Assembly: GCA_028718635.1 (NCBI GenBank)
Contig: JAQULK010000001.1
Coordinates: 152,626 to 216,625, forward strand
Direction: 5' to 3'
DNA from: Minisyncoccota bacterium
GTDB lineage: Bacteria > Patescibacteriota > Minisyncoccia > Phycocordibacterales > UBA9973
Length of the DNA stretch: 64,000 bases
Below, one piece after another: positions 10,083 to 64,000 of the stretch (the first letter of the stretch is position 1; every line of letters starts with the position of its first letter). A program made the translations under genes and the position numbers. Under the pieces are notes generated by a model that was not told the origin of the DNA, searched no databases, and saw nothing but the letters and a program-made list of their open reading frames with translations.

Positions 10083-12329
10083 ATGTTGAAAAATCAACCT
10101 GCCCGCCCTCCTAAGTCAGGAGCAGGCGGGGGAAGTATCTTTAAATTACATAAACCTTTTGAGCCAGCGGGGGATCAGCCAGTGGCTATCAGAGCGCTTG
10201 TGCAAGGTCTGTCTAAGGGAATGAAAAAGCAAACATTACTAGGAGCCACCGGCACAGGCAAGACTTTTACTATGGCAAATGTCATAGCTCAATATAACAA
10301 ACCAACTTTGGTAATAGCTCACAACAAAACCCTTGCCGCCCAGTTGGCCCAAGAATTTCGTGAATTTTTTCCAGATTCCGCAGTGCATTATTTTGTTTCT
10401 TATTATGATTATTATCAACCAGAAGCCTACATGCCTGCATCGGATACTTATATTGAAAAAGATGCCTCTATCAATAAAGAAATAGACATACTTCGCCATG
10501 CTTCCACGCAAGCGCTTTTAACAAGACGAGATGTGATTATAGTTGCCTCGGTTTCTTGTATTTATGGTTTGGGTTCTCCGGAAGAATATGAAAAAGTTAA
10601 TTTAAAACTTGAAATTGGTATGACGATGGACAGATTGACCTTAATGAAGAAATTAATTCAAATTCATTTTGAACGTACCAATGCAGATCTTACTCCTGGA
10701 ACTTTTCGTTCCATCGGTTCGCGGGTGGAATTTATGCCAGTTTCGGAAAGTATAATGTACCAAGTTGAAATGCAGGGCGGGAGAATTTCCAAAATAACAA
10801 AAGTTGATCCAGTTTCTTCTATTATAATTTCTGAAGAAAAGAATATTTTTATTTTCCCAGCAAAACATTTTATTACTGAAGATGCAAAAAAGAAAAAAGC
10901 GCTTATAGAAATTAAAAAAGAGCTAGCACAACAGCTAAAAAAATTTGAAAAAGAAGGGAAACTTTTAGAGGCTGAACGTATAAAAAGAAGAACTAATTAT
11001 GATTTGGCGATGATAAAAGAAGCTGGTTATTGCAACGGCATAGAAAATTATTCTAGGCACTTATCAGGGAAAAAAGAAGGCGAACCGCCAGAAACATTGC
11101 TTTCCTATTTCCCTAAGACTGGTTTTCTTACGATTATTGATGAATCGCATGTCACAATTCCACAACTACAAGGAATGTACGCAGGAGATGCTTCAAGAAA
11201 AAACACTTTAGTAGAATATGGATTTAGACTACCCTCCGCAAAAGATAACAGACCTTTAAAATTCAATGAGTTTGAAAATAGAATATATAATTCTATTTAT
11301 ACTTCCGCTACACCTGCAAAATTTGAGAAATCAGAAAGTAATCAAATAGTGGAACAAATTATTCGTCCGACAGGGCTTGTGGACCCAGAGACAATAGTGC
11401 GACCAGTTTCCGAAGGCGCATTTCCTCCCCTCCTTAACAAGGAGGGGAATGAGGGGAGGTTCTTAATTAATTCACCTCACCCCAACCCTCTCCTTAGTAA
11501 GGAGAGGGGGAATAACTACCCTGGCCAGATTCAAGATTTTATTCAAGAAACAGAAAAAACAATTGCAAAAGGTTTCAGGGTTCTAGCGACGACGTTGACA
11601 AAAAAAATGGCAGAGGATCTTTCTGTTTATTTAAAGGACAAAAAGATCAAAGCAGAATATCTACACAGTGATGTAAAAACGATAGACAGGATAAAAATTT
11701 TAACCCAATTCCGCAAAGGCGAATTTGATGTTTTAGTTGGCGTAAATTTACTTCGTGAAGGGTTGGATTTGCCAGAAGTTGCTCTGATTGGAATTCTAGA
11801 TGCCGACAAGGCAGGTTTTTTACGATCTGAAACATCTTTAATTCAAACGATTGGCCGTGCGGCTCGCAATAGTGAGGGTAAGGTTATTCTTTATGCCGAC
11901 ATTATGACTCCCGCGATGGATTATGCCCTAAAAGAAACTGCTCGTCGCAGAAATATTCAGCTTGCTTACAACAAAAAACATGGCATTACCCCAAAAACAA
12001 TTATGAAAAAGATAAAGGATATCACCGAAGAAATGGAAAGCGAACATGGGAAAGTTGTAAACGCCGAGCTCCAGCTTGATTTGGAAGTTTTTAAGCGCGC
12101 TTATGCGAAAGAATTTAAAAAAGAAAAGAAACAAAATCGGAAAATACCGAACACCAGCTTGGGGCAGTCTTATTTGTCTGATGAAGAGATAGGCAATTTA
12201 ATCTATGAAAAAATAATAAAAATGAAAGAAAAAGAAATGAACAAGGCAGTCAAAGAGTTAGATTTCGAGACTGCGGCGATACTAAGAGACGAGATCGGAG
12301 TTTTGCGAATGCGTACAGAAAAAAAATAG
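10083..12329 (+). CDS. uvrB: Excinuclease ABC subunit B
   Basis: GATGTGKTFTMA Walker A, helicase motifs, beta-hairpin region and a C-terminal UVR domain. Contains an in-frame insertion of about 32 aa between IVRP and GQIQDF. Confidence 0.95.
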   Translation: MLKNQPARPPKSGAGGGSIFKLHKPFEPAGDQPVAIRALVQGLSKGMKKQTLLGATGTGKTFTMANVIAQYNKPTLVIAHNKTLAAQLAQEFREFFPDSAVHYFVSYYDYYQPEAYMPASDTYIEKDASINKEIDILRHASTQALLTRRDVIIVASVSCIYGLGSPEEYEKVNLKLEIGMTMDRLTLMKKLIQIHFERTNADLTPGTFRSIGSRVEFMPVSESIMYQVEMQGGRISKITKVDPVSSIIISEEKNIFIFPAKHFITEDAKKKKALIEIKKELAQQLKKFEKEGKLLEAERIKRRTNYDLAMIKEAGYCNGIENYSRHLSGKKEGEPPETLLSYFPKTGFLTIIDESHVTIPQLQGMYAGDASRKNTLVEYGFRLPSAKDNRPLKFNEFENRIYNSIYTSATPAKFEKSESNQIVEQIIRPTGLVDPETIVRPVSEGAFPPLLNKEGNEGRFLINSPHPNPLLSKERGNNYPGQIQDFIQETEKTIAKGFRVLATTLTKKMAEDLSVYLKDKKIKAEYLHSDVKTIDRIKILTQFRKGEFDVLVGVNLLREGLDLPEVALIGILDADKAGFLRSETSLIQTIGRAARNSEGKVILYADIMTPAMDYALKETARRRNIQLAYNKKHGITPKTIMKKIKDITEEMESEHGKVVNAELQLDLEVFKRAYAKEFKKEKKQNRKIPNTSLGQSYLSDEEIGNLIYEKIIKMKEKEMNKAVKELDFETAAILRDEIGVLRMRTEKK
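11420..11515 (+). repeat. Two tandem GC-rich palindromic mini-elements (CCCCTCCTTAACAAGGAGGGG and CCTCACCCCAACCCTCTCCTTAGTAAGGAGAGGGGG) inserted in-frame in uvrB
   Basis: Perfect hairpin palindromes; they encode VSEGAFPPLLNKEGNEGRFLINSPHPNPLLSKERGNNYP, which is absent from canonical UvrB between RP and GQI. Confidence 0.8.
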
Positions 12330-12487: not shown

Positions 12488-15148
12488 ATGAAAAAAGATT
12501 TTCAAGACAAAATAATAGTAAAAGGCGCACGAACCCATAATTTAAAGAATATAAATGTGGAAATGCCTCGTAATAAAATGATAGCCATTACTGGTGTTTC
12601 TGGTTCTGGAAAATCATCTTTGGCTTTTGATACCATTTTTGCCGAAGGACAACGCCGATACGTGGAGTCTCTTTCTTCTTATGCGCGACAATTTTTAAAC
12701 CAAATGCCTAAACCTGATGTGGATGAGATCACGGGTCTTTCTCCTGCAATATCTATTGATCAAAAATCTCGTTCAAATAATCCGCGCTCGACTGTGGCGA
12801 CGATTACAGAGATCTATGATTACTTGCGAGTGATGTATGCGCGCATTGGGCATCCACATTGTCCTTTGTGTGGCGAAGAAATTAAAAAACTTTCCAATGA
12901 AGAAATTTTAAATTTTGTTTTGGAAAAGTTGAAAACACCCTCCTTGATTAAGGAGGGTGTAGGGGGTGGTAATTCCAAGAAATCACCACCTCGCCCTTCG
13001 GGCACTCCTCCTCAAAAAGGAGGAGATAAAATTCGTAAGGTTATGGGAGTCGAATGGGATGAAACAGAAATCAGTATTTTTTCACCAGTAATCAGGGGAA
13101 GAAAAGGGGAATATTATCAACTGCTTTATGATTTGCTTGGAAAAGGTTTTGCCGAAATTCGTCTTGATGGGATGATGAAAAAACTTCGCGAGCAAATAAC
13201 TCTTTCTAAAAACAAAGCACACAATATTGATATTCTAGTGGATCATTTTGCTCTACATGAGTTTACGGATGATAAGGACGGTAGTAGAATGCGTCTTTCT
13301 GAGGCTCTAGAACGTGCGCTTCTCGAGTCTGATGGTTTAGTAACTATAAAAATCGGCGATGAGGAATTTATTATGTCTGCAAAATTCGCTTGTAAGAATG
13401 ACGGTTTTTCTTTTCCAGAAGTGGAGCCGAGATTATTTTCTTTCAATTCTCCTTATGGTGCCTGTCCAGCTTGTAATGGCCTTGGTTCAAAATATTTTAT
13501 GGGAGATGAACCTTGTGAAACTTGCCATGGCGCGCGTTTACGCTCTGAAGCCTTAAATGTTTTTTTAGAGGCTTCCAAGAAGAAGGTAAACATATTAGAT
13601 CTTGCTTCTCTTTCTATAAAAGACGCATATACTTTTTTCAAAAACTTAAAACTCTCAGAACAAGAGAAGGAAATATCGGTGCCAGTCGTTCGGGAGATAG
13701 AAGCCAGACTTCAATTTATGCTGGACGTAGGTTTGGATTATTTGCAGTTGTCTCGCAAGGCGAACACTCTCTCTGGCGGAGAAGCGCAGCGTATCCGCTT
13801 GGCTTCTCAGCTTGGTTCGAGGCTCGTCGGCGCGCTTTATGTGCTCGATGAACCCACGATCGGACTTCACCAGCGAGACAACGATCGTTTGATAAAAACA
13901 CTTCAAAATTTACGTGATTTAGGCAATACAATTTTAATTGTAGAACATGATGAGGATACTATATATGCTTCGGATTATATCGTAGATATAGGACCGAAGG
14001 CCGGGGTGCACGGCGGGGAAGTGGTTGTTTCCGGTTATTTAGAAGATCTATTAACTGCAAAAAAGAACACAAATAATTCTCGAACACTTAGTTATTTGCG
14101 CGGAGAAACAAAAATAGAAATTCCTAAAAAACGGCGCCATCCTAAAGGCGCGCTTCGAATTGCCGGAGGAAATATTTTTAATATTAACAACCTTAATGTA
14201 GAAGTGCCTCTCGGAGTAATGACATCTATCACTGGTGTTTCTGGTTCCGGAAAAAGTTCTTTTATGTATGAGATTCTTTATAAAAATCTTCAAGCCCGCT
14301 TTGAGCGAAAGTATCGCACAGCCAAGATTTTTAATTGTTCCTCATTTTCTGGGACTGAATATCTATCCAGAGTTATTTTGATTGATCAATCGCCCATAGG
14401 CAGGACTCCGCGTTCAAATATTGTTACTTATACAGGAGCCTTCACGCATATCCGAGATCTTTTTGCTTCGACCGAAGAAGCGCGCTTGCGAGGATGGAAA
14501 GCAAATCGTTTTTCTTTCAATGTGAAAGGTGGTCGTTGTGAGGCCTGCGAAGGCAATGGTGAGATAGCTGTCGAAATGCATTTTTTGCCGACGGTTTATG
14601 TCACTTGCGATGTATGTGATGGAAAACGTTTTGATAAAGAGACGCTTACTGTAAAATACAAGAAAAAAAATATTTACGAAGTCCTGCATATGACTGTAGA
14701 AAATGGCCTTACTTTTTTCAAAGATATTCCGGCGATTTCCGATAGACTGCAGACCCTCTTTGATGTAGGGCTTGGTTACTTGGAACTCGGCCAATCAGCT
14801 ACAACGCTCTCTGGCGGGGAAGCGCAACGAGTAAAAATAAGTAGCGAGCTTTATCGTCCGCATTTGGAAAAAACTATTTATCTTTTAGATGAACCGACTG
14901 TGGGGCTTCATTATGATGACGTGCAGAAACTTTTGGAGGTTTTAAATAAATTGGTATCTCATGGCAATACGGTTGTCCTAATTGAACACAACCTTGATAT
15001 TGTGAAAAGTTCAGATTACATTATAGATATTGGTCCAGAAGGAGGAGTAGACGGAGGTAAAATTGTTGCCAAAGGCACGCCGGAAGAAGTGGCTGGAAAC
15101 AGCAAATCACACACTGGCAAATACTTAAGAAGAGTTTTGAGAAAATAA
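12488..15148 (+). CDS. uvrA: Excinuclease ABC subunit A
   Basis: Two ABC ATPase modules ([12 protein letters not shown] and [10 protein letters not shown]), zinc fingers, and ABC signature LSGGE twice. Start set at the ATG at 12488 ([21 protein letters not shown]) by alignment to the UvrA N-terminus. The ORF-track start at 12410 is a GTG. Confidence 0.9.
12935..13026 (+). repeat. Three small GC-rich palindromes inserted in-frame in uvrA
   Basis: CACCCTCCTTGATTAAGGAGGGTG, GGTGGTAATTCCAAGAAATCACCACC and CCTCCTCAAAAAGGAGGAG; the encoded segment [30 protein letters not shown] is absent from canonical UvrA. Confidence 0.75.
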
Positions 15149-15226
15149 AATTACATTTGTCCCGTACTAAATTTTTGATTACGGGGTATAAAGATAAGCA
15201 TTAATAATTAAAATTTTAGTACTGGG

Positions 15227-16519
15227 ATGACGAATGAAACTCTAAAAAAATTAAAACTGCCAGATAAGCCCGGTGTATATTTTTTCTTAAAAAATAAGAA
15301 AATTTTATACATCGGAAAAGCGACCTCTCTTCGAGACCGCACCAAAAGCTATTTCAGCAAGGACTTGATAAATACCCGAGGTCCGCTTGTTTTAGATATG
15401 GTTTTTAAATCGGACAATATAAAATGGGAAGCCACCGATTCTGTTTTAGAAGCTCTTATTTTAGAAGCTAATTTAATAAAAAAATATCAGCCTTATTACA
15501 ATACAAGAGAAAAAGATGATAAGAGTTTCAATTATGTCTGCATCACAAGGGAGAAATTGCCAAGAGTATTAGTAGTTAGAGGCCGAGTTTTAAAAAATTA
15601 TAAAGGAAGTATCTTTGGCCCGTATACTAGCGGTACCCAATTGCATGAGGCGTTAAAAATCTTACGCAGAATTTTTCCTTTTATTGATGACAAATCGAGT
15701 AAAAAACAAAACTATGAATTTTATAAACAGCTTGGACTGACTCCAGACGCATCATCTCCGAGTGAAATTTATTTGGATAATATAAAATATTTGAAACTTT
15801 TCTTTAAAGGCAAAAAGAAAGATATCATCCGAGATTTGAAAAAAAAGATGATGCAAAAAGCCAAAGAGGGAGAATTTGAAAAGGCCGGAGAAGTTAAAAG
15901 GCAAATTTTTGCGCTGAAACACATCAATGATATTGCGCTTATAAAAAATAGCTTCGCAGATAATAAAATTTTTGGTCCTGCGCCCTCCTTTGGGCGCATT
16001 TCTGGGAGCAAAGCGGGACCCTCGGACACAAAAATTTTATTATCTGCTTTGCTATTTCGCATTGAGGCTTATGACATAGCGCACATGGGAGGCAAAAATA
16101 TGGTTGGGGTGATGACAGTTTTGGAAAACGACGAAGCAGTAAAGAGTGAGTACAGAAAATTCAAAATTAAGACTCAGAATAATGTAAATGATACCGGCGC
16201 ACTCGCGGAAGTTTTAGAAAGAAGGTTGATGCATAAAGAATGGGCATTTCCAGATTTAATTGTGGTGGATGGCGGTATGGCGCAAATTAATGCCGCCAAA
16301 AGTGTTTTAAAAAAAATGGGTTTAAACATACCCGTAGTTTCTGTTGTTAAAGATGAACACCATAAACCGAAAGCCATAATGGGGGACAATCCACGCCACG
16401 GCAGGGCAAGAGATTTTGGATTAAAATATAAAAGAGAAATTCTACTAGCGAACAGCGAAGCACACCGATTTGCCATCAGTTATCATAAAAATATGAGGAA
16501 TAAGAATTTCTTGATTTAG
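15227..16519 (+). CDS. uvrC: Excinuclease ABC subunit C (short form, about 430 aa, lacking C-terminal HhH region)
   Basis: N-terminal GIY-YIG domain (PGVYFFLKNKKILYIGKATSLRDR) and a C-terminal RNase H-like endonuclease domain (VVDGGMAQINAA...). Confidence 0.85.
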   Translation: MTNETLKKLKLPDKPGVYFFLKNKKILYIGKATSLRDRTKSYFSKDLINTRGPLVLDMVFKSDNIKWEATDSVLEALILEANLIKKYQPYYNTREKDDKSFNYVCITREKLPRVLVVRGRVLKNYKGSIFGPYTSGTQLHEALKILRRIFPFIDDKSSKKQNYEFYKQLGLTPDASSPSEIYLDNIKYLKLFFKGKKKDIIRDLKKKMMQKAKEGEFEKAGEVKRQIFALKHINDIALIKNSFADNKIFGPAPSFGRISGSKAGPSDTKILLSALLFRIEAYDIAHMGGKNMVGVMTVLENDEAVKSEYRKFKIKTQNNVNDTGALAEVLERRLMHKEWAFPDLIVVDGGMAQINAAKSVLKKMGLNIPVVSVVKDEHHKPKAIMGDNPRHGRARDFGLKYKREILLANSEAHRFAISYHKNMRNKNFLI

Positions 16520-18332: not shown

Positions 18333-18818
18333 ATGAAAAAGGAAAATCAACAAGAAAATATTTTAATATTACACAATATCCGAAGCGTGGAAAACGTCGG
18401 GGCGATGTTTCGCACGGCTGATGCGGCGGGAATAAACAAAATTTATTTGTCGGGCTACACCCCAACTCCGCTTGATCGTTTTGGCAGAAAGAGAAGGGAT
18501 TTAGCTAAGTCTGCGCTCGGAGCGGAAGAATATATAACTTGGGAATATAAAAAAAGCTTGCCCGCCATTTTGCGAAGCTTAAGGCGGGAGAAATATTTAA
18601 TTATTGGAATAGAGCAGGATAAAAAATCGGTTGATTATAAAAAGGTAAAATTACATAATAAAAATGTTTTTATCGTAGGAACGGAAGTGACAGGCATACC
18701 TAAAAGTATTTTAAAAAAATGTGATGTAATTGCTGAAATTCCAATGCGAGGCAAAAAAGAATCGTTAAATGTTTCCGTGGCACTAGGAATAGCGCTCTTC
18801 GGGATTCTAAAATTATAG
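18333..18818 (+). CDS. SpoU/TrmH-family RNA 2'-O-methyltransferase
   Basis: ILILHNIRSVENVGAMFRTADAAGI... typical SPOUT methyltransferase motifs. Confidence 0.8.
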   Translation: MKKENQQENILILHNIRSVENVGAMFRTADAAGINKIYLSGYTPTPLDRFGRKRRDLAKSALGAEEYITWEYKKSLPAILRSLRREKYLIIGIEQDKKSVDYKKVKLHNKNVFIVGTEVTGIPKSILKKCDVIAEIPMRGKKESLNVSVALGIALFGILKL

Positions 18819-18857
18819 AATCAAAATTTTTGCCGGTACGGATTTTTTGAAGCTTAA

Positions 18858-18925
18858 AAAATCCTGAAGTTGGCTCGCCGTCGCTCGCCAAACCCCTTAA
18901 AAACTTTATTCTCTAATTTTAGAAT
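18858..18925 (+). repeat. Intergenic repeat family R1 (CGGTACGGATTTTTTGAAGCTTAAAAAATCCTGAAGTT...GGCTCGCC...AAACCCCT), copy 1; copy 2 at 41197..41265
   Basis: 38-bp identical core containing a perfect 9-bp-stem hairpin GGATTTTTT-GAAGCTT-AAAAAATCC, with similar flanks; both copies lie immediately 3' of genes. Confidence 0.7.
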
Positions 18926-19037: not shown

Positions 19038-19943
19038 TTATTTCTGATGCACGGAGCAAAAATGCGCGCTGCGGCCGTTTATTATTTTTCTAATTATTGT
19101 GCCTTTACAACCTTTTTTTCTGCATTTTTCTCCTGTGCGTCTATAAGCTTCATGATGCAGTTGGAATTTTCCGGGCAGGCCATAAATATTTTTGTAATCT
19201 GACATTGAGTCTCCGCCGAAATCTATGCCTTTCGCGAGTGTTTCTTTGATGGCTTTGAATATCAATTTAATTTCTGGCTTTTTGAGCGTGGAAACTTTTC
19301 TCTCCGGATGCACTCCGGCGCGCCAAAGTATTTCATCTGAATAAATATTACCAATGCCGGCAATAATTCTTTGATCCATCAAGACTGTCTTAATTTTCCC
19401 ATTTTGTTTTTTAAAAATTTGTAATTCGAAATTCGTAATTGTAAATTGTTTCTCTAACGGTTCCGGTCCGATATTATTCAGATGTTTACTACCTGCCCCG
19501 TAGGAAGTAATCTTTCCTTCGGGGTCGTGGGCAACGTTAGTATCTAATAAAGTAATTTTTCCGAATTTACGCATATCTGAAAAAATTAAATAATGTTTGC
19601 TTGTCCCGCCATGGCGTGGGTTAGATAAAGTGAAAACCACATGCGCAAATTTAATTTTTGGATCTTTGCCGTAAAATAAATAACCGGTCATCTTCATATG
19701 AACCAAGATGGTTTTACCTTCGGACAAGTTTATCAGGATATTTTTTGCACGTCTTTCGGCTGATATAATTTTCTTATTTAAAACTTCCTTTTTAAAATTT
19801 CTGAAAAATTTTGGATTTGCCACGCTGTCTCTTTTGCGCTTGTCTTTCGTCGCCAAATCAGTCCAAACGTCCTTTATTACAAGGCCTAGGACAGTCTTTT
19901 TGAGACCTCTTGTAGTTGTTTCTACTTCTGGTAATTCAGGCAT
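19038..19943 (-). CDS. mutM: Formamidopyrimidine-DNA glycosylase
   Basis: N-terminal MPELPEVE catalytic motif, H2TH region, and a C-terminal CxxC...CxxC zinc finger. Contains a 29-bp GC-rich palindrome in-frame (PEGKITSYGAG). Confidence 0.9.
   Translation of the reverse strand: MPELPEVETTTRGLKKTVLGLVIKDVWTDLATKDKRKRDSVANPKFFRNFKKEVLNKKIISAERRAKNILINLSEGKTILVHMKMTGYLFYGKDPKIKFAHVVFTLSNPRHGGTSKHYLIFSDMRKFGKITLLDTNVAHDPEGKITSYGAGSKHLNNIGPEPLEKQFTITNFELQIFKKQNGKIKTVLMDQRIIAGIGNIYSDEILWRAGVHPERKVSTLKKPEIKLIFKAIKETLAKGIDFGGDSMSDYKNIYGLPGKFQLHHEAYRRTGEKCRKKGCKGTIIRKIINGRSAHFCSVHQK
19496..19524 (+). repeat. 29-bp palindromic element (CCCCGTAGGAAGTAATCTTTCCTTCGGGG) in-frame in mutM; a near-identical inverted copy lies at 12448..12476 just upstream of uvrA
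   Basis: The two copies differ at 2 of 29 positions after reverse-complementing one; each forms an 11-bp stem hairpin. Confidence 0.75.
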
Positions 19944-40720: not shown

Positions 40721-41179
40721 ATGAATACAGGGAGATTTTTGGGAATTGATTTTGGGACAAAAAGGATAGGAGTGGCTATTTCAGACGAAAATCACACCTT
40801 GGCTTTTCCAAAAGAAATCGTTTTGAATAACCCAAATACTTTTAAAAAGCTCGGCGAGATAATAAAAAAAGAAAAAGTGGCAGAAATCGTGGTCGGAGAA
40901 TCTGTGGATTTTTCAGGGAAATTAAATGCTTTATCCGGTAGGATTGAAGTTTTTATTTTGGAATTGAAAGAGCATTTCAAATTGCCGGTGCATAAGCAAA
41001 AAGAATTCTTAACTTCAGTGGAGGCTCGCCGATATGAAGATCTTGGCGGGCAAGCTAGAAAATCTAATGCTCATAGCAGATTGAAGCAAATAAAGTCTGG
41101 CCGAATAGATGCCTCCGCGGCGGCTCTCATCTTACAGCGATATTTAGATAAAATAAATATCGTAAATCATGAAACATAA
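40721..41179 (+). CDS. ruvX: Putative pre-16S rRNA nuclease / Holliday junction resolvase-like protein YqgF (RuvX)
   Basis: FLGIDFGTKRIGVAISDE N-terminal RNase H-like motif. Start set at the ATG at 40721 rather than the ORF-track start at 40598. Confidence 0.8.
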   Translation: MNTGRFLGIDFGTKRIGVAISDENHTLAFPKEIVLNNPNTFKKLGEIIKKEKVAEIVVGESVDFSGKLNALSGRIEVFILELKEHFKLPVHKQKEFLTSVEARRYEDLGGQARKSNAHSRLKQIKSGRIDASAAALILQRYLDKINIVNHET

Positions 41180-41302
41180 ACTTTTCTTCGGTACGGATTT
41201 TTTGAAGCTTAAAAAATCCTGAAGTTCTCGGCTCGCCAGCCTCGAAACCCCTGCGAAAAGTTATGTTTCGTGATTTAGAGACAAATAGGTTATAATATTT
41301 GT

Positions 41303-45524: not shown

Positions 45525-48142
45525 TGAATGACGCTCGCCAATTTTGTCATCCTGAACTTGTTTCAGGATCTAATGCGTTTGCCAAAATAATAAAACTTTT
45601 CCGTTTCATTTTTTTCTTCTCGATATTTCTGGGAAGCTTTTTTGTTTTGGCAAACGAAGCAAGCGCGGCGACGTATTATGTGGATGCGACTCTTGGAAAG
45701 GATACATATAATGGTATAACCACAACTATAAATGATGGAGCAAGTGAAGGTCCATGGAAAACACTAACTAAAGTAAATGCCGCGCTGAATGCCGCTTCTA
45801 TTCATGCTGGTGATAGTGTTTTATTTAAAGCAGGGGAGACTTTCTTTGGCTATTTGTATGTTAAGGTAACGGGAACGGTAGGAAATATATTAACATTTGA
45901 TTCCTATGGAAGTGGAAATAAACCTATAATCGACGCTACTGGAAATAATAGCGGTATCGATCTTCGTGGAATAAATTATGTTACGTTTAATAATTTGGAT
46001 GTTAGAAATGCAACATTCCAAGGATACTTTTTTCTCAATGGAAATGACCACATAACAATAAATAATGGAAGTATATCTTCTTCTGCAAAGGCTATCCATC
46101 TCTATAACAATACAATTTCAAATCTAACAATTTCAAATCTAAATGCCAGTAATAATACATATGGTATTTATGGATTTGCCGGGGTTACTGTTAACACATT
46201 GTCCATATCCAATAGCCATTTCGACGACAACACATCAGAAGGTTTTTTCACCGATGGCACTGCGAACGGGAGTAATTTTACGATAACAGATACCACCATG
46301 TCCCGTAATGGGATCGGATCTGATAAAAATGGATTTTTACTACAAGGGACCGGCAGTACAGTTATCCTTACCAGGGTAACATCAGCCAACAACGGAGGGG
46401 ATGGATTTGGTGTCCATAACACTTGGATTGGTGTTATTTTTGATTATTGTACGGCGGATACTAACGGAACAGACGGGATAGGATCAGATGGAGACGGATT
46501 CAGTTTCCATGAGACTTCTTCTGGAATAATCAGGTATTCAATCAGCAAAAATAATTTAAAAACTGCGATTGCTCACGTTAATAGCTCCGCTGTTGAAATG
46601 TATTATGATCTTTTTTATCATGCAACCAATGGCACCTTGCCGCTTGTTTTATTACAAAATACTGGAAATCATAAATTATATAATAATATTATTTACAGTG
46701 GAAGTCAGACTGGTGATGCAGTAAGCGTTGAAGGGACCGTTGATATGCAAAACAATATAATAGATGGTTTCAATCGTGGCCTTATAAAAACTGGAGGAAC
46801 AATATCCAATGACCATGATATTATTTATGGAGTATTAACTTCTAATTATGTTGGTATTTCTGCCGGTGCTTATTCAATTATACAGGATCCAAAATTTTTT
46901 AATTCCAGTATTTATAACTTTTCCCTTCTCCCCACTTCCCCCGCCATCGACTCTGGCACCGATGTCTCATTAACCACCGACTACGCCGGCAATTCCATCT
47001 ACGGTACGCCCGACATCGGCGCTTATGAATACCAGCCGCCATATACCATGGGCACGGATGCAGTAAACACTTCCACCAGTGTCAGAATGTACGGAGACGA
47101 AAAGTTCAGAAACAAAACCGCCACCACCACGGAAACCACGGCTGATCTCTCAATTACCATTCCCGACTCGGATAAAACCAAGTGGCTGGACATAGCAGTT
47201 TCCACCTGGGACAACTCCGGAACTTATCACAAAACCTGGACGGAAAACACTACCAGCACCATTACCAACACCCTCCATACCATCGGAGACCTGGAACCCA
47301 ACAAATACTACAATGTGTCCGTGGATTCCGTTCTGGGAAACAACATTACCGGCGATAACTGTTCAAACGGCCTCTGTCTTTCCAACGCGGAAGGTAAAAT
47401 ATCTTTTACCTATACTGGTTCATATTCCGAACACACCTTTGACGTGGAAGAAGGAGATAATACCGCCCCCATCCGTTCCGCCGGTTTGCCTTCCGGCAGT
47501 CAACCTGCTGGCACAACGCAAGTAACAATGTCTTTGACCACCGACGAAAACGCCACCTGCAAATACTCCACCTCTGCCGACACCGCTTACGCTTCCATGA
47601 CCGATACCTTTACCACAACTGGCACCCAATCCCATTCCACCACCATTTCCGGTCTCTCCAACGGCAATACATACAATTACTATGTCCGCTGCACTGACGG
47701 CTCAAATGCTAACAGCAACGATTACCCTATTTCTTTTTCCATTACTAACCCTACCGCGCATTCTTCAGGCAACAGTGCTCAGAGTCGAATCAACAATCTG
47801 CTCTCCATGGGCAACTACACCCAAGCGCAACAATTGGCTAATCAATACAATATTTCAATTCCAGTAATTACCACCCCGCCTACAGCACCCCTCCTGAATC
47901 AAGGAGGGGAAAGAAGTGTTAATGCTTACAACTTTGGTCTCTCTGTTCTCAAAAAAGGAAGCAAAGGTGAAGCTGTCAAAGAACTCCAGAAGTTCTTAAA
48001 CCAAGATCTGAAACTAAACTTGAAAATAGATGGCATCTTGGGATCAAAAACAACTATGGCTATCAAACAATACCAAAAAGCGCATAATCTAAAAGTGGAT
48101 GGGGTAGTGGGGGAGAAGACGAAGGGGAGGATGGGGGTGTGA
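45524..48142 (+). CDS. Secreted right-handed beta-helix (pectate-lyase-like repeat) protein with C-terminal peptidoglycan-binding domain
   Basis: Hydrophobic signal-like segment then cleavage-like ANEASAA; many N.T.S..N..I/..N repeats typical of parallel beta-helix; C-terminal PG_binding_1-like segment (KGEAVKELQKFLNQ...IDGILGSKTTMAIKQYQ). GTG start preceded by a (GA)7 repeat. Confidence 0.7.
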   Translation: MNDARQFCHPELVSGSNAFAKIIKLFRFIFFFSIFLGSFFVLANEASAATYYVDATLGKDTYNGITTTINDGASEGPWKTLTKVNAALNAASIHAGDSVLFKAGETFFGYLYVKVTGTVGNILTFDSYGSGNKPIIDATGNNSGIDLRGINYVTFNNLDVRNATFQGYFFLNGNDHITINNGSISSSAKAIHLYNNTISNLTISNLNASNNTYGIYGFAGVTVNTLSISNSHFDDNTSEGFFTDGTANGSNFTITDTTMSRNGIGSDKNGFLLQGTGSTVILTRVTSANNGGDGFGVHNTWIGVIFDYCTADTNGTDGIGSDGDGFSFHETSSGIIRYSISKNNLKTAIAHVNSSAVEMYYDLFYHATNGTLPLVLLQNTGNHKLYNNIIYSGSQTGDAVSVEGTVDMQNNIIDGFNRGLIKTGGTISNDHDIIYGVLTSNYVGISAGAYSIIQDPKFFNSSIYNFSLLPTSPAIDSGTDVSLTTDYAGNSIYGTPDIGAYEYQPPYTMGTDAVNTSTSVRMYGDEKFRNKTATTTETTADLSITIPDSDKTKWLDIAVSTWDNSGTYHKTWTENTTSTITNTLHTIGDLEPNKYYNVSVDSVLGNNITGDNCSNGLCLSNAEGKISFTYTGSYSEHTFDVEEGDNTAPIRSAGLPSGSQPAGTTQVTMSLTTDENATCKYSTSADTAYASMTDTFTTTGTQSHSTTISGLSNGNTYNYYVRCTDGSNANSNDYPISFSITNPTAHSSGNSAQSRINNLLSMGNYTQAQQLANQYNISIPVITTPPTAPLLNQGGERSVNAYNFGLSVLKKGSKGEAVKELQKFLNQDLKLNLKIDGILGSKTTMAIKQYQKAHNLKVDGVVGEKTKGRMGV

Positions 48143-50391: not shown

Positions 50392-51033
50392 ATGAAAATC
50401 AGAAAAATAACTCAAATACTCATCGTGGTGTCGGTTATCGCTATTATTTTTATCCTTTTTCGTTTGGATTTGTCGGGAGTAGAAACTCCTGGTTATTTGA
50501 TCTGGAATCTTTTTTTAGCTTGGATACCTTACATAATTTCTTCGTATTTTATTAAAAAGGAAACATCAATAAGTATTTTTATACCATTGTTTATTTTCTG
50601 GCTTTTGTTTTTCCCAAATGCTCCATATTTAGTGACTGATGTTACGCACATAGTCTCGAGTCCTGCGTCCTTCGTGTGGTATGACAGCTTGCTCTTCTTT
50701 TTCTTCGGATGGGTCGGTTTGCTTTTGGGAATGGTTTCTCTTTATCGTATTCATCAATATTTCAAAAATCATTTAAGCAATTTTATTTCTGAACTGATAA
50801 TTTTTGTTATTTGTTTTGTTTCGAGTTTCGGAGTGTATTTGGGAAGATTCGAAAGATGGAATAGCTGGGATCTTTTTTTAAACCCATTTAATTTAATTAA
50901 GCAGTCAGTTAATATTTCAGCTGACCTCATTAATGCAGGCGCCCCATTAATTTTTGTCGGCATATTTACTATATTCATGTACTCAGTTTATAAAACAGTA
51001 TATATTCTGATTGCAGATAACTCTGAATTATAA
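50392..51033 (+). CDS. DUF1361-like integral membrane protein
   Basis: WNLFLAWIPY and FFPNAPYLVTD motifs in a 5-6 TM protein. Confidence 0.5.
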   Translation: MKIRKITQILIVVSVIAIIFILFRLDLSGVETPGYLIWNLFLAWIPYIISSYFIKKETSISIFIPLFIFWLLFFPNAPYLVTDVTHIVSSPASFVWYDSLLFFFFGWVGLLLGMVSLYRIHQYFKNHLSNFISELIIFVICFVSSFGVYLGRFERWNSWDLFLNPFNLIKQSVNISADLINAGAPLIFVGIFTIFMYSVYKTVYILIADNSEL

Positions 51034-51797
51034 TGCCAGCAATAACAAATTCAAAAATAAAAGTTTTATACGAGGATGCAAATATCCTGGCCATAGACAA
51101 ACCGTCTGGAATTTTGGTGCACCCTGACGAAAGAAGTAAAGAGAAAACAATTTTAGATTTATTTATAAAAAAATATCTGAAATTAGAGATAGTGCATAGA
51201 CTTGATAGAGAGACTTCCGGAGTTCTCTTGTTGGCTAAAAATAAAAAAGCTCACGAATTTCTAAAAAAACAATTTCAAAATCGGGAGATAAAAAAAGTTT
51301 ATCATGCTATCGTTTCCGGCAATGTAAAAAATGAGAGGGGGATAATAAATAAGCCAATCGGGCGAAGCCCGAAAGATTTTCGCCGTTATTCGGCTGGCAG
51401 AGGAGCCCGGGGAGAGATGCGAGAAGCGATAACCCAGTATAGGGTTTTGAAACGTTTTGTTGCTAAGGCGAAGCTTCAAGAAATTTTACATCCCCGAGGG
51501 TCCCACTCCGCAGGAGAAGGGCGCAGGGGTGGAAAATTACTTGAAGCGAAGCCACAAAGATTTACCTATCTGGAAATAAGACCAAAAACTGGCCGGACGC
51601 ATCAGATCAGGGTGCATATGAAATATTTGAATCATCCCATTGTGTGCGATTCGCTTTATAATCCTGATAATCCTTGCCCGAAAGGCATTTTTCGAGTGGC
51701 CCTGCATGCCAAATCCATAGAATTTAAGAACTTAAAAGGGGAAACTATAAAAGTGGAATCCGCAATTCCAAAAGAGTTTGAGAAGGTGGTAAAATGA
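51033..51797 (+). CDS. RluA-family pseudouridine synthase
   Basis: HRLDRETSGVLLLAKN catalytic motif and TGRTHQIRVH. Contains a GC-rich, roughly 30-aa in-frame insertion. Confidence 0.85.
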   Translation: MPAITNSKIKVLYEDANILAIDKPSGILVHPDERSKEKTILDLFIKKYLKLEIVHRLDRETSGVLLLAKNKKAHEFLKKQFQNREIKKVYHAIVSGNVKNERGIINKPIGRSPKDFRRYSAGRGARGEMREAITQYRVLKRFVAKAKLQEILHPRGSHSAGEGRRGGKLLEAKPQRFTYLEIRPKTGRTHQIRVHMKYLNHPIVCDSLYNPDNPCPKGIFRVALHAKSIEFKNLKGETIKVESAIPKEFEKVVK

Positions 51798-51881
51798 ATC
51801 TAAGAAATACTTTCTCACCCCAACCCCTCTCCATAAATTGATTTATGGAGAGGGGAAAGCAAGGGGAGAGGTGAATTAATT

Positions 51882-53585
51882 ATGAATCAAGAAACTAAAT
51901 CCTGCCAAAATTGCCAAAAAGATTTCACGATAGAGCCAGAAGATTTTAATTTCTATGGAAAGATAAAAGTTCCATCGCCCTCTTGGTGTCCAGAATGCCG
52001 AATAGTACGTAGATTTGCTATTCACAATACTTGGAGTTTGTTTTGGCGAAATTGTGAAAAGTGTGGGATTAAAACTCTATCAACTTTTGAACCGGAAACA
52101 AAAATCACAACTTACTGCCAACCTTGCTGGTGGGGAGATTCTTGGGATGGCACAGAGTATGCTATGGACTACGATCCATCGCGTCCGTTTTTGGAACAAT
52201 TAAAAGAGTTGAGTAACAAAACGCCGTATGCTGCGCTTGAAACAGCTTATTTAACATTAAAAAATTCTGATTATTCAAATGATATTGCCTGGAGTAAAGA
52301 TTGTTATTTAGTTTTCTGGGCTGATTATTGTGATACAGTTTTTTACTCTTCTTTATTAAATGGTTTGAAATATAGTGCAGATTGTATTAGGGGATATGAA
52401 TCAGAATTATGTTATGAGTCTATAGGTTTTACGAAAAATTATAGAACTTTTTTTTCCGATGAATGTGATACCTGTGTGGATGTATGGTTTTCGCGTAATT
52501 GTTACGGTTGCACCAATTGCATCGGATGTGTGAACCTTCGTGGAGCTTCTAATTATATTTTTAATGTAAAATATTCTAAAGAAGAATATGCGGAAAAATT
52601 AAAAGAACTCAGTCTAGATTCTTGGAGTAAATTACGCGAGCTTGAAAAAAGAGCGCATGAATTTTGGCTGACTTTACCATATAGAGAATATGATGGCCAT
52701 TCTTTAAATTTAAATGTAACAGGAGAACATGTGTATACATCTAAAAATTCTAAAGAGGTATATGTTGTAAATGGTGCAGAAAATTGTAAATGGACTCAGT
52801 TTATAACAGTTCCTACTGCAAAAGATTGCATGGACTACTCTGGCTGGGGTAACAATTCTTCTCTTATTTATGAATCTGCCACTGTAGGAGAGAACGCGAA
52901 TTCAATTTATTTTTGTTATGGCTGTTGGCCGGATTCTCTTAATCTTCAATATTGTTCTTGGAATATATCCGGCAAAAATAATTTTGGCTGTTTTAATCTA
53001 AAGAGAAAGCAATATTGCATCCTAAATAAACAATATTCCAAAGAAGAATACGAGAAACTGAAAAATGAAATTATCGCAGATATGAAAATAAATCCGTATA
53101 TAGATAAACTGGGACGCAAATATTATTATGGAGAATTTTTTCCATCCGAGTTAAGTAAATTTTCTTATAATAAATCAAATGCCATACGTTTTTTCCCAAA
53201 GACAAAAGAGCAAGCGACCCGTGAAGGGTTTAACTGGAGTGATAGAGAAAATATCGTATATAATATTTCTAAACCAGCAAATTCTTTACCGGAAAAAATT
53301 GCGAATACAGGAGAAGATATCTTAAACGAAGTTATTGAATGTGAAAATTGTGGGAATGGATATAGGGTAGTTCAGGGTGAATATGATTTATTGCGTAAAA
53401 TGAATTTACCTATCCCGCATGAATGTCCCAAATGCCGTGAAATTAAACGATTTGCCAGAATGAATAAACCAAAGTTGCATCACCGAAATTGTATGAAATG
53501 CGGTGTAAATATTTATACCCCTTATTCTCCCGAAAGTCCTAATATTGTGTATTGCGTGAAGTGTTATCAGCAAGAATTTGCTTAA
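51882..53585 (+). CDS. Cys-rich protein of unknown function (paralogue 2)
   Basis: 567 aa. N-terminus CQNCQKDFTIEPEDFNFYGKIKVPSPSWCPECR, C-terminus MNLPIPHECPKCR, internal C.GC.NL...YCILNKQYSKEEYEKL repeats. Collinear homology to 16545..18293. Confidence 0.7.
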   Translation: MNQETKSCQNCQKDFTIEPEDFNFYGKIKVPSPSWCPECRIVRRFAIHNTWSLFWRNCEKCGIKTLSTFEPETKITTYCQPCWWGDSWDGTEYAMDYDPSRPFLEQLKELSNKTPYAALETAYLTLKNSDYSNDIAWSKDCYLVFWADYCDTVFYSSLLNGLKYSADCIRGYESELCYESIGFTKNYRTFFSDECDTCVDVWFSRNCYGCTNCIGCVNLRGASNYIFNVKYSKEEYAEKLKELSLDSWSKLRELEKRAHEFWLTLPYREYDGHSLNLNVTGEHVYTSKNSKEVYVVNGAENCKWTQFITVPTAKDCMDYSGWGNNSSLIYESATVGENANSIYFCYGCWPDSLNLQYCSWNISGKNNFGCFNLKRKQYCILNKQYSKEEYEKLKNEIIADMKINPYIDKLGRKYYYGEFFPSELSKFSYNKSNAIRFFPKTKEQATREGFNWSDRENIVYNISKPANSLPEKIANTGEDILNEVIECENCGNGYRVVQGEYDLLRKMNLPIPHECPKCREIKRFARMNKPKLHHRNCMKCGVNIYTPYSPESPNIVYCVKCYQQEFA

Positions 53586-53684: not shown

Positions 53685-54095
53685 ATGGCAGGAAATAAAA
53701 TCAATAAAATAAAATTCACTCCGGTAGATATCGAAGAGCGAAAGAAGCTTAATTTCAAGGCTGGAGATACTGTTTCTGTTTCGTCAAAGATTATAGATGA
53801 AAAAGGCAAGTCTCGTTTTCAAGTTTTTGAGGGTATCGTGCTTGCTAGAAAACATGGCACTGAAGCGGGTGCTACTTTTACCGTCAGAAAGGTTTCTTCT
53901 GGTGTTGGAGTAGAAAGAATTTTTCCGTTATATTCTCCAATGATAGGGGAAATCAAAATAACTAAAAGGTCTCGCGCTCGCAGGTCAAAACTTTACTATA
54001 TCCGTACCAAGGCAGTCAAAGATGTTCGCAAAAAAATGCGTTCCATCGCTCATTCAGAGGAAGCAAACGATGCAGTAGAAAAAGTTGCAGAATAA
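53685..54095 (+). CDS. rplS: 50S ribosomal protein L19
   Basis: Typical L19 core (FKAGDTVSV...RFQVFEGIV...) with a basic C-terminal extension. Confidence 0.9.
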   Translation: MAGNKINKIKFTPVDIEERKKLNFKAGDTVSVSSKIIDEKGKSRFQVFEGIVLARKHGTEAGATFTVRKVSSGVGVERIFPLYSPMIGEIKITKRSRARRSKLYYIRTKAVKDVRKKMRSIAHSEEANDAVEKVAE

Positions 54096-54139: not shown

Positions 54140-54223
54140 GCCCAGGTGGCGAAACTGGTAGACGTACTACCTTGAGGTGGTAGCGCCCGCAAGGGCATGG
54201 GAGTTCAAATCTCCCCCTGGGCA
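54140..54223 (+). tRNA. tRNA-Leu (anticodon GAG)
   Basis: Acceptor GCCCAGG/CCTGGGC, long variable arm, anticodon loop TTGAGGT. Confidence 0.8.
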
Positions 54224-54327
54224 CAAAAGAAATATTAAAGAATCTCTTTAAGTGGCAAGAACACTTGTGAAAAATATCCACAAGTGTTCTTGTTTACCTT
54301 GTCTTTCTTTTTTGGTATAATGTACTT

Positions 54328-54849
54328 ATGCCAATAGTTAAATGCAAATTATGTTCAAAAGAATTTTATGGTAAACCATTTTTTCTAAAGAATGGTTGGG
54401 CTAAGTATTGTTCTACCGCATGTCAGTACAAAGCTAGACGAAGTGGAAAATTTTTACCCTGCGAGATTTGTGGAGAAAAGACCTATAAACAGTTAAAAAG
54501 ACTAAAAAAATCTAAAAGTGGTAAATTCTTTTGTAGCAAGTCTTGCCAAACAGTGTGGAGAAATCAAGAATTCATAGGAATTAAACATCATAATTGGAAA
54601 ACTGGGTTATCTGCTTACAGAAGCGTATTGGCGAGAAATAAGATTCCTAAATTTTGCAATTTATGTAGAACAAAAGATGAAAGAGTTCTTTCTACCCATC
54701 ATATTGATAAGAATAGAAACAATAATCATGTATCAAATCTTGCATGGCTTTGTAACAATTGTCATTTTTTAGTTCACCATTATAAAGATGAATCCTTGAA
54801 ATTTAAAAAAAATCTGTCAGTATATAGAATACGAGGTAAATCCTCATAA
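54328..54849 (+). CDS. HNH endonuclease with N-terminal zinc-ribbon repeats (paralogue of 39763..40275)
   Basis: CRTKDERVLSTHHIDKNRNNNHVSNLAWLCNNCH HNH motif; flanked by tRNA-Leu (105 nt upstream) and tRNA-His (4 nt downstream). Confidence 0.8.
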   Translation: MPIVKCKLCSKEFYGKPFFLKNGWAKYCSTACQYKARRSGKFLPCEICGEKTYKQLKRLKKSKSGKFFCSKSCQTVWRNQEFIGIKHHNWKTGLSAYRSVLARNKIPKFCNLCRTKDERVLSTHHIDKNRNNNHVSNLAWLCNNCHFLVHHYKDESLKFKKNLSVYRIRGKSS

Positions 54850-54852
54850 CAT

Positions 54853-54925
54853 GGTGCCCGTAGTTTAGTGGTAAAACTTCGGCTTGTGGAGCCGATATCG
54901 AGAGTTCAATTCTCTCCGGGCACCC
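54853..54925 (+). tRNA. tRNA-His (anticodon GUG) with extra 5' G(-1)
   Basis: G-1 plus acceptor GTGCCCG/CGGGCAC, anticodon loop TTGTGGA, T arm GAGTTCAATTCTC. Confidence 0.8.
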
Positions 54926-61645: not shown

Positions 61646-62039
61646 TTATTTTTTAGTGGAGCGGGTTGAGCGTGATATAATATCTGCAAGGAGTTCCTTC
61701 TACATTGCATTATGTTTGTACAAATAGTTTTACACATTGCACATTATGACTTCCGACTCGGAGTCATGATATTATTAAAATATGAAAACCCGACCCAACC
61801 CGCGACCCCACTTCATTGTATTTCTTTTACATGGCATCAAGAGATTAACTACCTCGCTAAACAATCCCAACATTTTCAAACCAGCCCTATTGTTACTTTG
61901 CTCGGATGGGGTAGTGGGGGAGAAGACGAAGGGGAGGATGAATGGGGATATTTAAAGTGCGTTGGACAAGACTCTAACTTGCTTAGCTTGATTACTTGTT
62001 GTTATAATTAAATTATTAAAAATCTAATTAATCTTAATT
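61646..62039 (+). other. GC-richer non-coding or degraded region downstream of the AbiE pair, holding a displaced 36-bp fragment of the PG-binding domain gene tail and a strong hairpin
   Basis: GATGGGGTAGTGGGGGAGAAGACGAAGGGGAGGATG at 61906..61941 is identical to 48104..48139 (3' end of the CDS 45524..48142) but in a different frame. The ORF 61712..62011 has low-complexity translation. Hairpin ATGACTTCCGACTCGGAGTCAT at 61748..61773. Confidence 0.5.
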
Positions 62040-63372: not shown

Positions 63373-63441
63373 AAAGACCTCACCCCAGCCCTCTCCTTGT
63401 TAAGGAGAGGGGGGTTCATTTGACTATTTGAGCAAAAAGAG

Positions 63442-63699: not shown

Positions 63700-63773
63700 G
63701 AACACTTGTCCCGTAGTAAATTCAGCAAATGGGACATAGTCGATAAATATTATTAATTAAAATTTTACTACTG

Positions 63774-64000
63774 GGATGGCTAAACAAGAAACGCTAGGAA
63801 CAAGAAATTGGTACGCAATACATACTTATGCCGGATACGAGAACGTTGTTCTTCGTAATTTGAAACAGCGCATAGACTCTCTCGGGATGAATGATAAAAT
63901 TTTTAACGTGATTGTCCCAGTTGAAAAGAAAATAAAAATCAAAGCCGGCAAGCGAGTAGAAGTGGAAGAAAAAATTTATCCCGGATATGTGTTGGTGGAT
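63774..64000 (+). CDS. nusG: Transcription termination/antitermination factor NusG (5' partial; continues beyond window)
   Basis: MAKQETLGTRNWYAIHTYAGYENVV... NGN domain N-terminus. Confidence 0.8.

Follow-up and report, generated by a model that had tools for sequence, protein, structure and literature searches.

We examined a 64,000-nt stretch of the genome of a Minisyncoccota bacterium (assembly GCA_028718635.1, contig JAQULK010000001.1, positions 152,626 to 216,625, forward strand; hereafter the window). The gene at its centre of interest, here called P2, encodes a cysteine-rich protein and stands between a pseudouridine synthase gene of the rluA family and rplS, with a palindromic element just ahead of its start codon; a paralogue, P1, lies elsewhere in the window, preceded by uvrC and followed by a SpoU/SPOUT methyltransferase gene. 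P2 is a genuine, vertically inherited gene. Its reading frame opens with ATG, no in-frame start lies further upstream and the sequence gives no evident signal peptide; the identical protein has been deposited publicly under the name 'hypothetical protein PHT16_01030, Candidatus Pacebacteria bacterium', and P1 as PHT16_00825. The palindrome, judged by its sequence and by where its copies occur, is an inserted copy of a dispersed hairpin repeat and not a dedicated regulator of P2.

P2 and P1 had been described in the initial annotation as sharing one architecture, and the two proteins do align end to end in BLASTP (38% identity, 53% positives, E=3e-128), while their genes retain 77% DNA identity over the first 146 nt. 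The peptide motifs behind that description all occur in the P2 translation, namely CQNCQKDFTIEPEDFNFYGKIKVPSPSWCPECR at aa 8-40, FGCFNLKRKQYCILNKQYSKEEYEKL at aa 368-393 and MNLPIPHECPKCR at aa 507-519. What were taken for internal repeats do recur, though as two copies of the FGCFNLKRKQYCILNKQYSKEEYEKL motif only, the second of them degenerate (IGCVNLRGASNYIFNVKYSKEEYAEKL, aa 214-240). The two genes are thus full-length paralogues, but the idea of a local pair has to be given up: P1 has its own set of orthologues (62-80% identity), and because each gene has its own orthologues at 60-80% identity, P1 and P2 are best read as two anciently separated clades rather than a recent duplication.

The family to which they belong is large. 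More than 7900 homologues of P2 carry the names of lineages of the candidate phyla radiation (CPR) or no name at all; the best 120 of these are 66-80% identical to P2, nearly all 555-584 aa long, and labelled Nomurabacteria, Paceibacterota or Berkelbacteria, or left unnamed. An exhaustive HMMER search over 1.84 billion cluster representatives returned 3480 clusters (50% identity) with E<=1e-3, of which 1241 reach E<=1e-30; nearly all are full-length (550-600 aa). Record titles of the named loci are those of Patescibacteria lineages except for a few otherwise labelled, and by these labels the family, whose proteins of about 570 aa look cytoplasmic, is restricted to the ultra-small CPR (Patescibacteria) bacteria. 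To gauge its diversity we took 82 loci, drawn from metagenomes and from species representatives in GTDB, with 123 full-length family genes among them. Clustered at about 50% identity, these genes form at least 36 groups, the largest of which is that of P2 (54 members, mean identity 0.61); P2, at 55-80% identity across genera, is the most conserved clade of the family. Copies are often close together: within 4 kb on either side there are two in 24 loci, three in 5, four in 2 and five, in tandem, in 3. A phage or viral origin of the family was rejected, as no match was found in 50,697 phage records and one fragment only in IMG/VR. Two further observations concern individual members. In a 731-aa protein (P0194, L086:5001-7196) the full family body is preceded by a fused GNAT acetyltransferase domain at the N-terminus, and its gene stands downstream of mnmA, a radical-SAM gene of MiaB-like type, rnc and der; and in five loci (L034, L054, L057, L064 and L066) family genes are split over two frames, which may reflect frameshifted pseudogenes or sequencing errors.

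P2 is built as a double zinc finger, two units that each consist of a cysteine-ladder β-solenoid and a helix, a conserved linker, and a second double zinc finger (Table 1). The AlphaFold models of P2 (predicted local distance difference test score, pLDDT, 87; predicted template modelling score, pTM, 0.89) and P1 (pLDDT 90.1, pTM 0.91) have identical topology, with pLDDT above 90 in the N-terminal module and mostly above 90 in the linker of P2. The two terminal modules are homologous to each other (34% identity, E=1e-20). In the N-terminal one, the first finger (C8/C11/C36/C39) is treble-clef-like with a CPxCRxxRR helix, and its cysteine pairs are 94-99% conserved in the family; the second (C58/C61/C79/C82) has the form CxxC-x17-CxxC and is 57-89% conserved. 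The corresponding set at the C-terminus (C537-x2-C540-x17-C558-x2-C561) reaches 96-99%. Four Cys4 zinc sites are predicted in P2, and the conservation of the cysteines supports them. Within the solenoids the cysteines keep a strict 3-residue register at a pitch of about 12 residues, and 6002 of 7510 Cys-Cys spacings (80%) are multiples of 3. Solenoid 1 terminates in CxxCxxCxxC (C207/210/213/216) followed by an NxKYSKEEY cap, and solenoid 2 in FGCxNLxxKxYCILNKQYSKEEY, where C370, C379 and N382 are 92-100% conserved; both are capped by the 'NKQYSKEEY' helix. In the linker, G417, F419, F420, P421, S425, Y429, N430, A434, P439, G449 and W452 are invariant or nearly so.

Table 1. Coordinates in the window of the genes, protein domains and repeat copies discussed in the text.
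Feature	Coordinates	Strand	Remarks
P2 gene	51882..53585	+	567-aa Cys-rich protein, 33 Cys, pI 6.3
P2 N-terminal double zinc-finger module	51882..52151	+	aa 1-90
P2 Cys-ladder β-solenoid 1	52239..52571	+	aa ~120-230; short strands, 12-residue pitch in model
P2 Cys-ladder β-solenoid 2	52677..53021	+	aa ~266-380; related to solenoid 1, E=4e-6
P2 linker domain	53091..53321	+	aa 404-480; highly conserved, GEFFP...S..YN..A...P...G..W
P2 C-terminal double zinc-finger module	53322..53582	+	aa 481-567; C487/490/515/518, C537/540/558/561
P1 gene	16545..18293	+	582 aa, 38 Cys, architecture as P2
5' outer arm of palindrome, CTTTCTCACCCCAA	51810..51823	+	pairs with Shine-Dalgarno-like 3' arm in RNA fold; same arm in other copies
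Inner hairpin of palindrome, CCCCTCTCCATAAAT / ATTTATGGAGAGGGG	51824..51855	+	perfect 15-bp stem, 100% complementary
3' part of palindromic repeat	51856..51881	+	AAAGCAA spacer, Shine-Dalgarno-like arm GGGGAGAGGTGA (51863-51874), AATTAATT tail to ATG
DUF1361 membrane protein gene	50392..51033	+	PF07099, 141 bits; stop overlaps rluA start
rluA-family pseudouridine synthase gene	51033..51797	+	TIGR00005, 208.8 bits (cut-off 192.7); PF00849, 121.6 bits
GC-rich in-frame insertion, RluA surface loop	51485..51537	+	GC island; peptide ...HPRGSHSAGEGRRGG...
rplS (ribosomal protein L19)	53685..54095	+	PF01245, 110 bits; downstream of P2
SpoU/SPOUT methyltransferase gene	18333..18818	+	PF00588, 112 bits; downstream of P1
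Two repeat copies in uvrB	11420..11512	+	in-frame, peptide ...PPLLNKEGNEGRFLINSPHPNPLLSKERG...; uvrB ORF 10083..12329 reads through
Repeat-core copy CTCACCCCAGCCCTCTCCTTGTTAAGGAGAGGGG	63379..63412	+	sequence match to core

The fingers, taken by themselves, are related to something already described. The only Pfam or NCBIfam models that match the family are zf_Tbcl (PF13451) and zf_Tbcl_2 (PF23477, with the CxxC-x17-CxxC model TIGR04272), whose succession of CxxC-x24-CPxC and CxxC-x17-CxxC is found again at the termini of P2 and P1. The scores of the two proteins stay below the cut-offs (P2 aa 533-564 against PF23477, 25.7 bits with a cut-off of 27; P2 against TIGR04272, 22.4 with 36; P1 against PF13451, 16.2 with 24). 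Among 70 relatives at E<=0.05, zf_Tbcl_2 is matched in 39, zf_Tbcl in 19 and LIM in 3, and many P2 orthologues carry a precomputed PF23477 label. Known proteins of these families are small and stand-alone, or have the finger as an isolated domain, whereas in P2 two pairs of fingers cap a core of about 400 aa. Two small CxxC-x17-CxxC proteins of Methanosarcina mazei bind zinc experimentally (PMC12704099). The C-terminal module, with its tandem Cys4-type fingers, also recalls LIM domains, although spacing and ligand pattern are unlike and the LIM matches of the family profile (CRP, MLP, PINCH; E=0.003-0.6) are below significance for homology. LIM domains are eukaryotic, and consist of paired treble-clef zinc fingers that act as protein-binding adaptors.

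The core itself has no counterpart in the collections searched. No Pfam, NCBIfam, PHROGs or PADLOC model covers the central ~400 aa of P2 or P1, and the 70 members contain no hexapeptide or other repeat, ferredoxin or SPASM family there (E<=0.05). It can be likened to narrow Cys-containing β-solenoids such as insect antifreeze and ice-binding proteins, left-handed β-helix acyltransferases, γ-carbonic anhydrases, curli and bactofilin, and yet it gave no significant superposition on solved folds of this kind (left-handed β-helix, antifreeze/ice-binding, curli, bactofilin). No PDB fold extends over it, and a profile search of PDB sequences returned weak LIM-like matches alone. We found no description of this family in the literature on Cys-rich or zinc-ribbon proteins of the CPR, nor under the Pfam and TIGR identifiers. 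What is already known is that the sequences are public as hypothetical proteins and that the terminal fingers belong to Pfam families that have been described without a function. The searchable literature appears to contain no account of the core domain, the architecture as a whole, the arrays of paralogues or the linkage to rluA and rplS.

The abundance of cysteines invites another reading, in which the CxxC ladder binds many zinc ions or Fe-S clusters and the protein serves to buffer or store metal, to carry electrons, or as a redox-switched holdase resembling Hsp33 or the Cys-rich part of DnaJ. There are 33-38 cysteines per protein, a CxxC about every 12 residues and a conserved CxxCxxCxxC, and in 4 loci the gene of one subfamily comes immediately after grpE, with DnaJ or DnaK nearby in 3. 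We consider it improbable. Most ladder columns are only 30-65% Cys, and S, N, T, F and V take their place in P2, so that they suit a structural core better than a set of obligatory ligands; no match to ferredoxin or SPASM was obtained, and the genes after the grpE-linked pairs we examined encode ABC transporters or LepA and not DnaK. The grpE-linked arrangement (rpsI-grpE-family-family; L071, L079, L082, L084) involves a divergent subfamily, about 30% identical to P2, that begins at the grpE end and is followed by a second paralogue. That it forms a grpE-family-dnaK operon was rejected on account of the same downstream genes.

The position of P2 downstream of an RluA-type pseudouridine synthase was recognised from the outset, and holds: the TIGR00005 score of the upstream gene is above cut-off. 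The DUF1361 gene, whose end overlaps the start of rluA, is probably the first gene of the rluA/P2 transcription unit, and a scan of the window returned no promoter-like or terminator-like site on the + strand between DUF1361, rluA and P2. Searching the window proteins with tblastn against 57 P2-clade loci, and scoring rluA where at least 900 nt of upstream sequence were available, we found rluA upstream of the P2 orthologue in 33 of 46 loci, at times with 1-2 extra paralogues in between, and rplS downstream in 38 of 50. The commonest junction between rluA and P2, seen in 15 loci, is a stop codon, 4 nt and ATG (TAACGTCATG, TAGTATTATG, TAATACTATG), a count that derives from the aligned end of RluA lying 8 nt from the P2 start in these loci. 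Such spacing is the signature that a translationally coupled operon pair would be expected to bear.

The retention of either neighbour in other genomes had been proposed as a check, and the outcome differs for the two paralogues. RluA is kept by P2, as given above; of the 6 other P1 loci examined, only L210 retains the SPOUT neighbour, in the order uvrA-uvrC-P1-spoU that the window also shows. In L031, L075, L211 and L212 the gene directly next to the P1 orthologue is another member of the family, and in L209 rluA-P2-rplS is followed by P1 about 0.5 kb downstream. Because P1 orthologues elsewhere thus adjoin family members or lie close to rluA-P2-rplS, the ancestral arrangement would seem to have been a tandem array at the locus of rluA and rplS. 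In the window, P1 probably carries its own promoter near the ATG (TTGATT-16-TAATAT-6-ATG).

With neighbours such as these, P2 might also be an RNA enzyme of novel fold, for instance one that modifies or processes rRNA or tRNA as a partner of RluA or SPOUT. Besides rluA and, for P1, spoU, the company of mnmA, miaB, rnc and der around the GNAT-fused member would be in keeping with this, and three polar residues (N382, E500 and R519) are invariant. Nonetheless, this is distinctly improbable. No enzyme fold was matched above noise level, neither protein nor the 70 relatives contain a recognisable catalytic domain or cofactor motif in Pfam or NCBIfam, the spoU neighbour is not conserved, and E500 and R519 lie in the zinc-finger module, where they look structural.

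Distant paralogues have a different surrounding. Some are found next to rpsI or DnaJ/DnaK, and in 7 loci a TrwB/VirD4/DUF87-type ATPase of 680-865 aa stands beside or inside a family array (for example L055:1738-4005, L058:6453-9047, L073:106-2295 and L043:6461-8512). Both examples that we compared with Pfam have an internal zf_Tbcl_2 finger; a fusion of the ATPase to the family core was rejected, the finger of about 30 aa being all that is in common. A second reading of the family builds on this setting, and takes it as diversifying genes of conflict, defence or mobile islands that work with the VirD4/HerA-like ATPase in inter-genomic conflict or DNA transfer, the place of P2 between rluA and rplS being incidental. 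The arrays of 2-5 copies, the at least 36 clusters among 123 genes, the frame-broken copies, the ATPases at arrays, and integrases and PaaX-like genes nearby could all be understood in this way. We think it doubtful, however, as the P2 and P1 clades are 60-80% identical across genera in stable housekeeping synteny, P2 and P1 have no PADLOC or PHROG match, the family is missing from the phage records and near-absent from IMG/VR, and the ATPase shares nothing beyond its finger.

A few features further downstream of P2 may be mentioned for completeness. The P2-rplS spacer has no Rfam family match. ARAGORN predicts a tRNA-Leu(GAG) at 54140-54224 that is not in the Rfam gathering-threshold scan, and a tRNA-His lies at 54854-54925. 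Between them, at 54328-54849, is the gene of a 173-aa Cys-rich protein with several CxxC pairs and an HNH-like C-terminus; in L030, L056 and L061, relatives of this protein are encoded a few kb away from P2 and rplS.

The spacer between rluA and P2 is 84 nt long in the window (51798..51881), one less than first reported, and the palindrome announced there is real: inverted repeat arms at 51824-51838 and 51841-51855 are nested in an imperfect outer stem that begins 13 nt past the end of the rluA stop codon. Its description as GC-rich is true of the arms only, the loop being AT-rich and the 62-nt element as a whole having 48% GC against 37.6% in the window. As RNA, the element has a minimum free energy (MFE) of -35.6 kcal/mol (z=-4.9), and 0 of 200 shuffled sequences fold as well. 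A Rho-independent terminator was rejected, as the hairpin is followed by AAAGCAAGGGG and lacks a U-tract, and no terminator-like site was detected on the + strand in 51798-51881. Rfam 15 gave no match at gathering level, and otherwise only microRNA and small-RNA matches at noise level (E>=0.02) far below the gathering scores.

Copies of the same element turn up in other places. The 9-mer CCCCTCTCC, for which 0.11 occurrences would be expected in the window, is found there 4 times. The repeat core, CTCACCCCA(A/G)CCC(C)TCTCC-loop-GGAGAGGGG, is present in the window at 11476, 51814 and 63379, with a variant at 11420-11462, and beyond it in five of the sampled loci (three copies in L001; one each in L015, L022, L031 and L071). 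It lies inside rluA in L001, L022 and L031. At the rluA/P2 junction, most orthologous loci lack the element, which is therefore a lineage-specific insertion. L001, whose P2 is 78% identical, has it at the same junction with a different loop, and has further copies inside rluA and just after the P2 stop. A scan of metagenomes with the core as (C)CCTCACCCCAACCCCTCTCC-loop-GGAGAGGGG found it in at least 120 stretches; the GC content of 80 of these (L089-L168) ranges from 31 to 75% with a median of 61%, and a 5' flank (C/A)CCTCA is conserved although the pattern did not force it. The location of these copies relative to open reading frames (ORFs) is uninformative in high-GC contigs. By its sequence string, we found no description of the repeat in the literature.

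In several respects the repeat resembles Rickettsia palindromic elements (RPEs), repetitive extragenic palindromic (REP) sequences and transposable elements of the miniature inverted-repeat type (MITEs), being a short palindrome with several copies per genome. The in-frame insertion of RPEs is a classical case from Rickettsia, and their hallmark, copies that sit in-frame within intact protein-coding genes, is matched here by those in the essential gene uvrB, which they do not disrupt, and by those in rluA of L001, L022 and L031; other copies of the repeat lie in intergenic spacers. Surface loops as insertion hotspots are another point of likeness. The RluA loop between 'VLKRF' and 'FTYLE' (about 51470-51560 in the window) has unrelated inserts of 8-30 aa in about half of 35 orthologues and a turn of 3-4 aa in the rest (sites include L001 5590-5670 and others in L009, L014, L018, L022, L025, L028, L034, L053, L056 and L074); some of the inserts, in L001, L022 and L031, are the CCCTCTCC/GGAGAGGG repeat, and the loop is an insertion hotspot. 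There are also differences. At about 35-70 nt in the CPR host the repeat is shorter than an RPE, and its occurrence on contigs of 31-75% GC is far broader than that of any RPE; as to REP and MITE, no target-site duplication (empty and filled sites being compared at the rluA/P2 junction only) or GTAG-type REP signature was identified, nor a transposase, for which no search was made. Further GC-rich and often palindromic in-frame segments are found in uvrB (10094-10136), uvrA (12979-13016), uvrC (15973-16031) and fpg (within 19038..19943, - strand). Other dispersed repeats of the window include one of 87 nt (76% identity) at 18823-18909, just after spoU, and 41178-41264, an exact G-rich one of 37 nt at 48097-48133 and 61904-61940, and an AT-rich one of 42 nt upstream of two genes, at 15193-15234 and 63742-63783.

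It is against this background that a dedicated cis-regulatory RNA (a riboswitch, attenuator or thermosensor that controls P2 by sequestering its Shine-Dalgarno (SD) sequence) has to be judged. The fold is very stable in the window and in L001 (z=-4.9 and -4.4), the SD-like arm is paired in both, and the element has been kept at the same junction while the P2 proteins are only 78% identical. But the majority of orthologous junctions do without it, the repeat also lies in coding regions, after the P2 stop of L001 and in unrelated high-GC organisms, no Rfam family matches, compensatory changes are missing, and the loops differ completely, leaving no conserved loop that resembles a ligand pocket. 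A dedicated riboregulator is largely refuted by the distribution of the repeat, and we regard it as very unlikely indeed.

Whether the element supplies the ribosome-binding site of P2, as the initial annotation had it, is a subtler matter. Its 3' arm includes a good SD match: GGTGA ends at 51874 and the ATG follows at 51882, a spacing of 7 nt, and the GGAGAGGTGA at this spot forms a duplex of -8.5 kcal/mol with a canonical anti-SD (an Rfam scan found no 16S rRNA gene in the window from which that of the host could be taken). This is unusual in its surroundings, where the median duplex over 52 long ATG-ORFs (>=150 aa) is +0.3 kcal/mol, 46 of the 52 have essentially no SD and only about six reach -5.5 kcal/mol. 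Many genes of the window, P1 included, have instead a TATAAT-like hexamer about 7 nt before the ATG. The rarity of SD matches, together with the TATAAT-like box near the ATG, suggests that leaderless or very short-leader messenger RNAs may be widespread in the host. To our knowledge, an operon-internal gene cannot be leaderless. On the other side, the arm belongs, like the AATTAATT tail, to the consensus of the repeat and is predicted to be paired. The copy after the P2 stop in L001 ends ...GGAGAGGGGAAGAGCAAAGGGGTGAGGTGAATTAAATT, nearly identical to the 3' end in the window, so that AAAGCAAGGGGAGAGGTGAATTAATT, the SD-like arm with its spacer, is repeat consensus and not something evolved for P2; and whether one takes the MFE or the centroid structure, the arm is base-paired with the 5' outer arm in the copy of the window and in that of L001, in an outer stem that begins 13 nt (window) or 8 nt (L001) past the rluA stop codon. 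That the element 'carries its SD' is thus a plausible exaptation, not a demonstrated design.

How, then, might these parts fit together? We propose that P2, without being an enzyme, acts as a zinc-stabilised scaffold or adaptor for binding, that it serves housekeeping related to RNA or the ribosome, and that it is made from the transcript of rluA, because it has predicted Cys4 sites, a duplicated solenoid core and no catalytic signature, and because the rluA-P2-rplS synteny comes with 4-nt spacing; this remains tentative, and we would rate it rather below an even chance. The binding surfaces would be the treble-clef helices (CPxCRxxRR) and the faces of the solenoids, and the expansion of paralogues would have led to differing binding specificities. 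P2 would be co-transcribed with rluA, and its translation would ancestrally have been coupled to rluA by termination and reinitiation, as stop and start lie 4 nt apart. In the lineage of the window genome and L001, a dispersed hairpin repeat has entered the junction of rluA and P2 and broken the 4-nt coupling of stop and start. This may have been tolerated because its 3' arm (GGGGAGAGGTGA and the AATTAATT tail) provides an SD-like site 7 nt from the ATG. The arm would be sequestered in the outer stem, and a ribosome that terminates on rluA, 13 nt before the stem begins, could melt it, such that the coupling to rluA might be preserved by the very act of termination. For the combination of a family of this kind, an rluA-linked P2 scaffold and a tolerated repeat insertion, which is the best overall explanation we can offer, our confidence comes close to even without reaching it.

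Several observations weigh against this proposal. P2 is not basic (pI 6.3; 6.5 for the N-terminal module and 8.7 for the C-terminal one), which speaks little for nucleic-acid binding. The neighbourhood evidence for a role with RNA or the ribosome is weak as well, given that CPR genomes are dense in translation genes and such neighbours are partly expected by chance; moreover, the distant paralogues neighbour VirD4/TrwB-like ATPases, PaaX-like regulators (5 loci), grpE and integrases. Instead of zinc, the ladder cysteines might hold Fe-S clusters or form disulfides. As for the element, its outer stem is without covariation or compensatory change between the window and L001 copies, a mismatch stands at the same position in both (A.A in the window, U.U in L001), and in a genome mostly devoid of SD sequences the SD-like arm may be irrelevant. 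One can also go further than our proposal and picture a CPR-specific new fold, two double zinc fingers that clamp two period-3 cysteine-ladder solenoids, where P2, translationally coupled to RluA and L19, is a ribosome or RNA factor that stands in for biogenesis or modification factors missing from these reduced genomes, its paralogues are specificity variants, and a pan-bacterial repeat that enters essential genes in-frame, as RPEs do, has been exapted as ribosome-binding site of an operon-internal gene; in this strong form we find it unlikely.

The CPR, or Patescibacteria, make up a large share of bacterial diversity, with tiny genomes and many conserved genes of unknown role. The family described here is abundant among them, its clusters numbering thousands and its copies several per genome, and its confident models make it a tractable target for structural and biochemical studies. 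The family, one clade of which is 60-80% identical and fixed between rluA and rplS, is also a candidate lineage marker. Finally, hairpin repeats can invade operon junctions and coding loops in the CPR, as RPEs do in Rickettsia, and the case of the element before P2 suggests that such an insertion can be neutralised by an SD-like sequence of its own.

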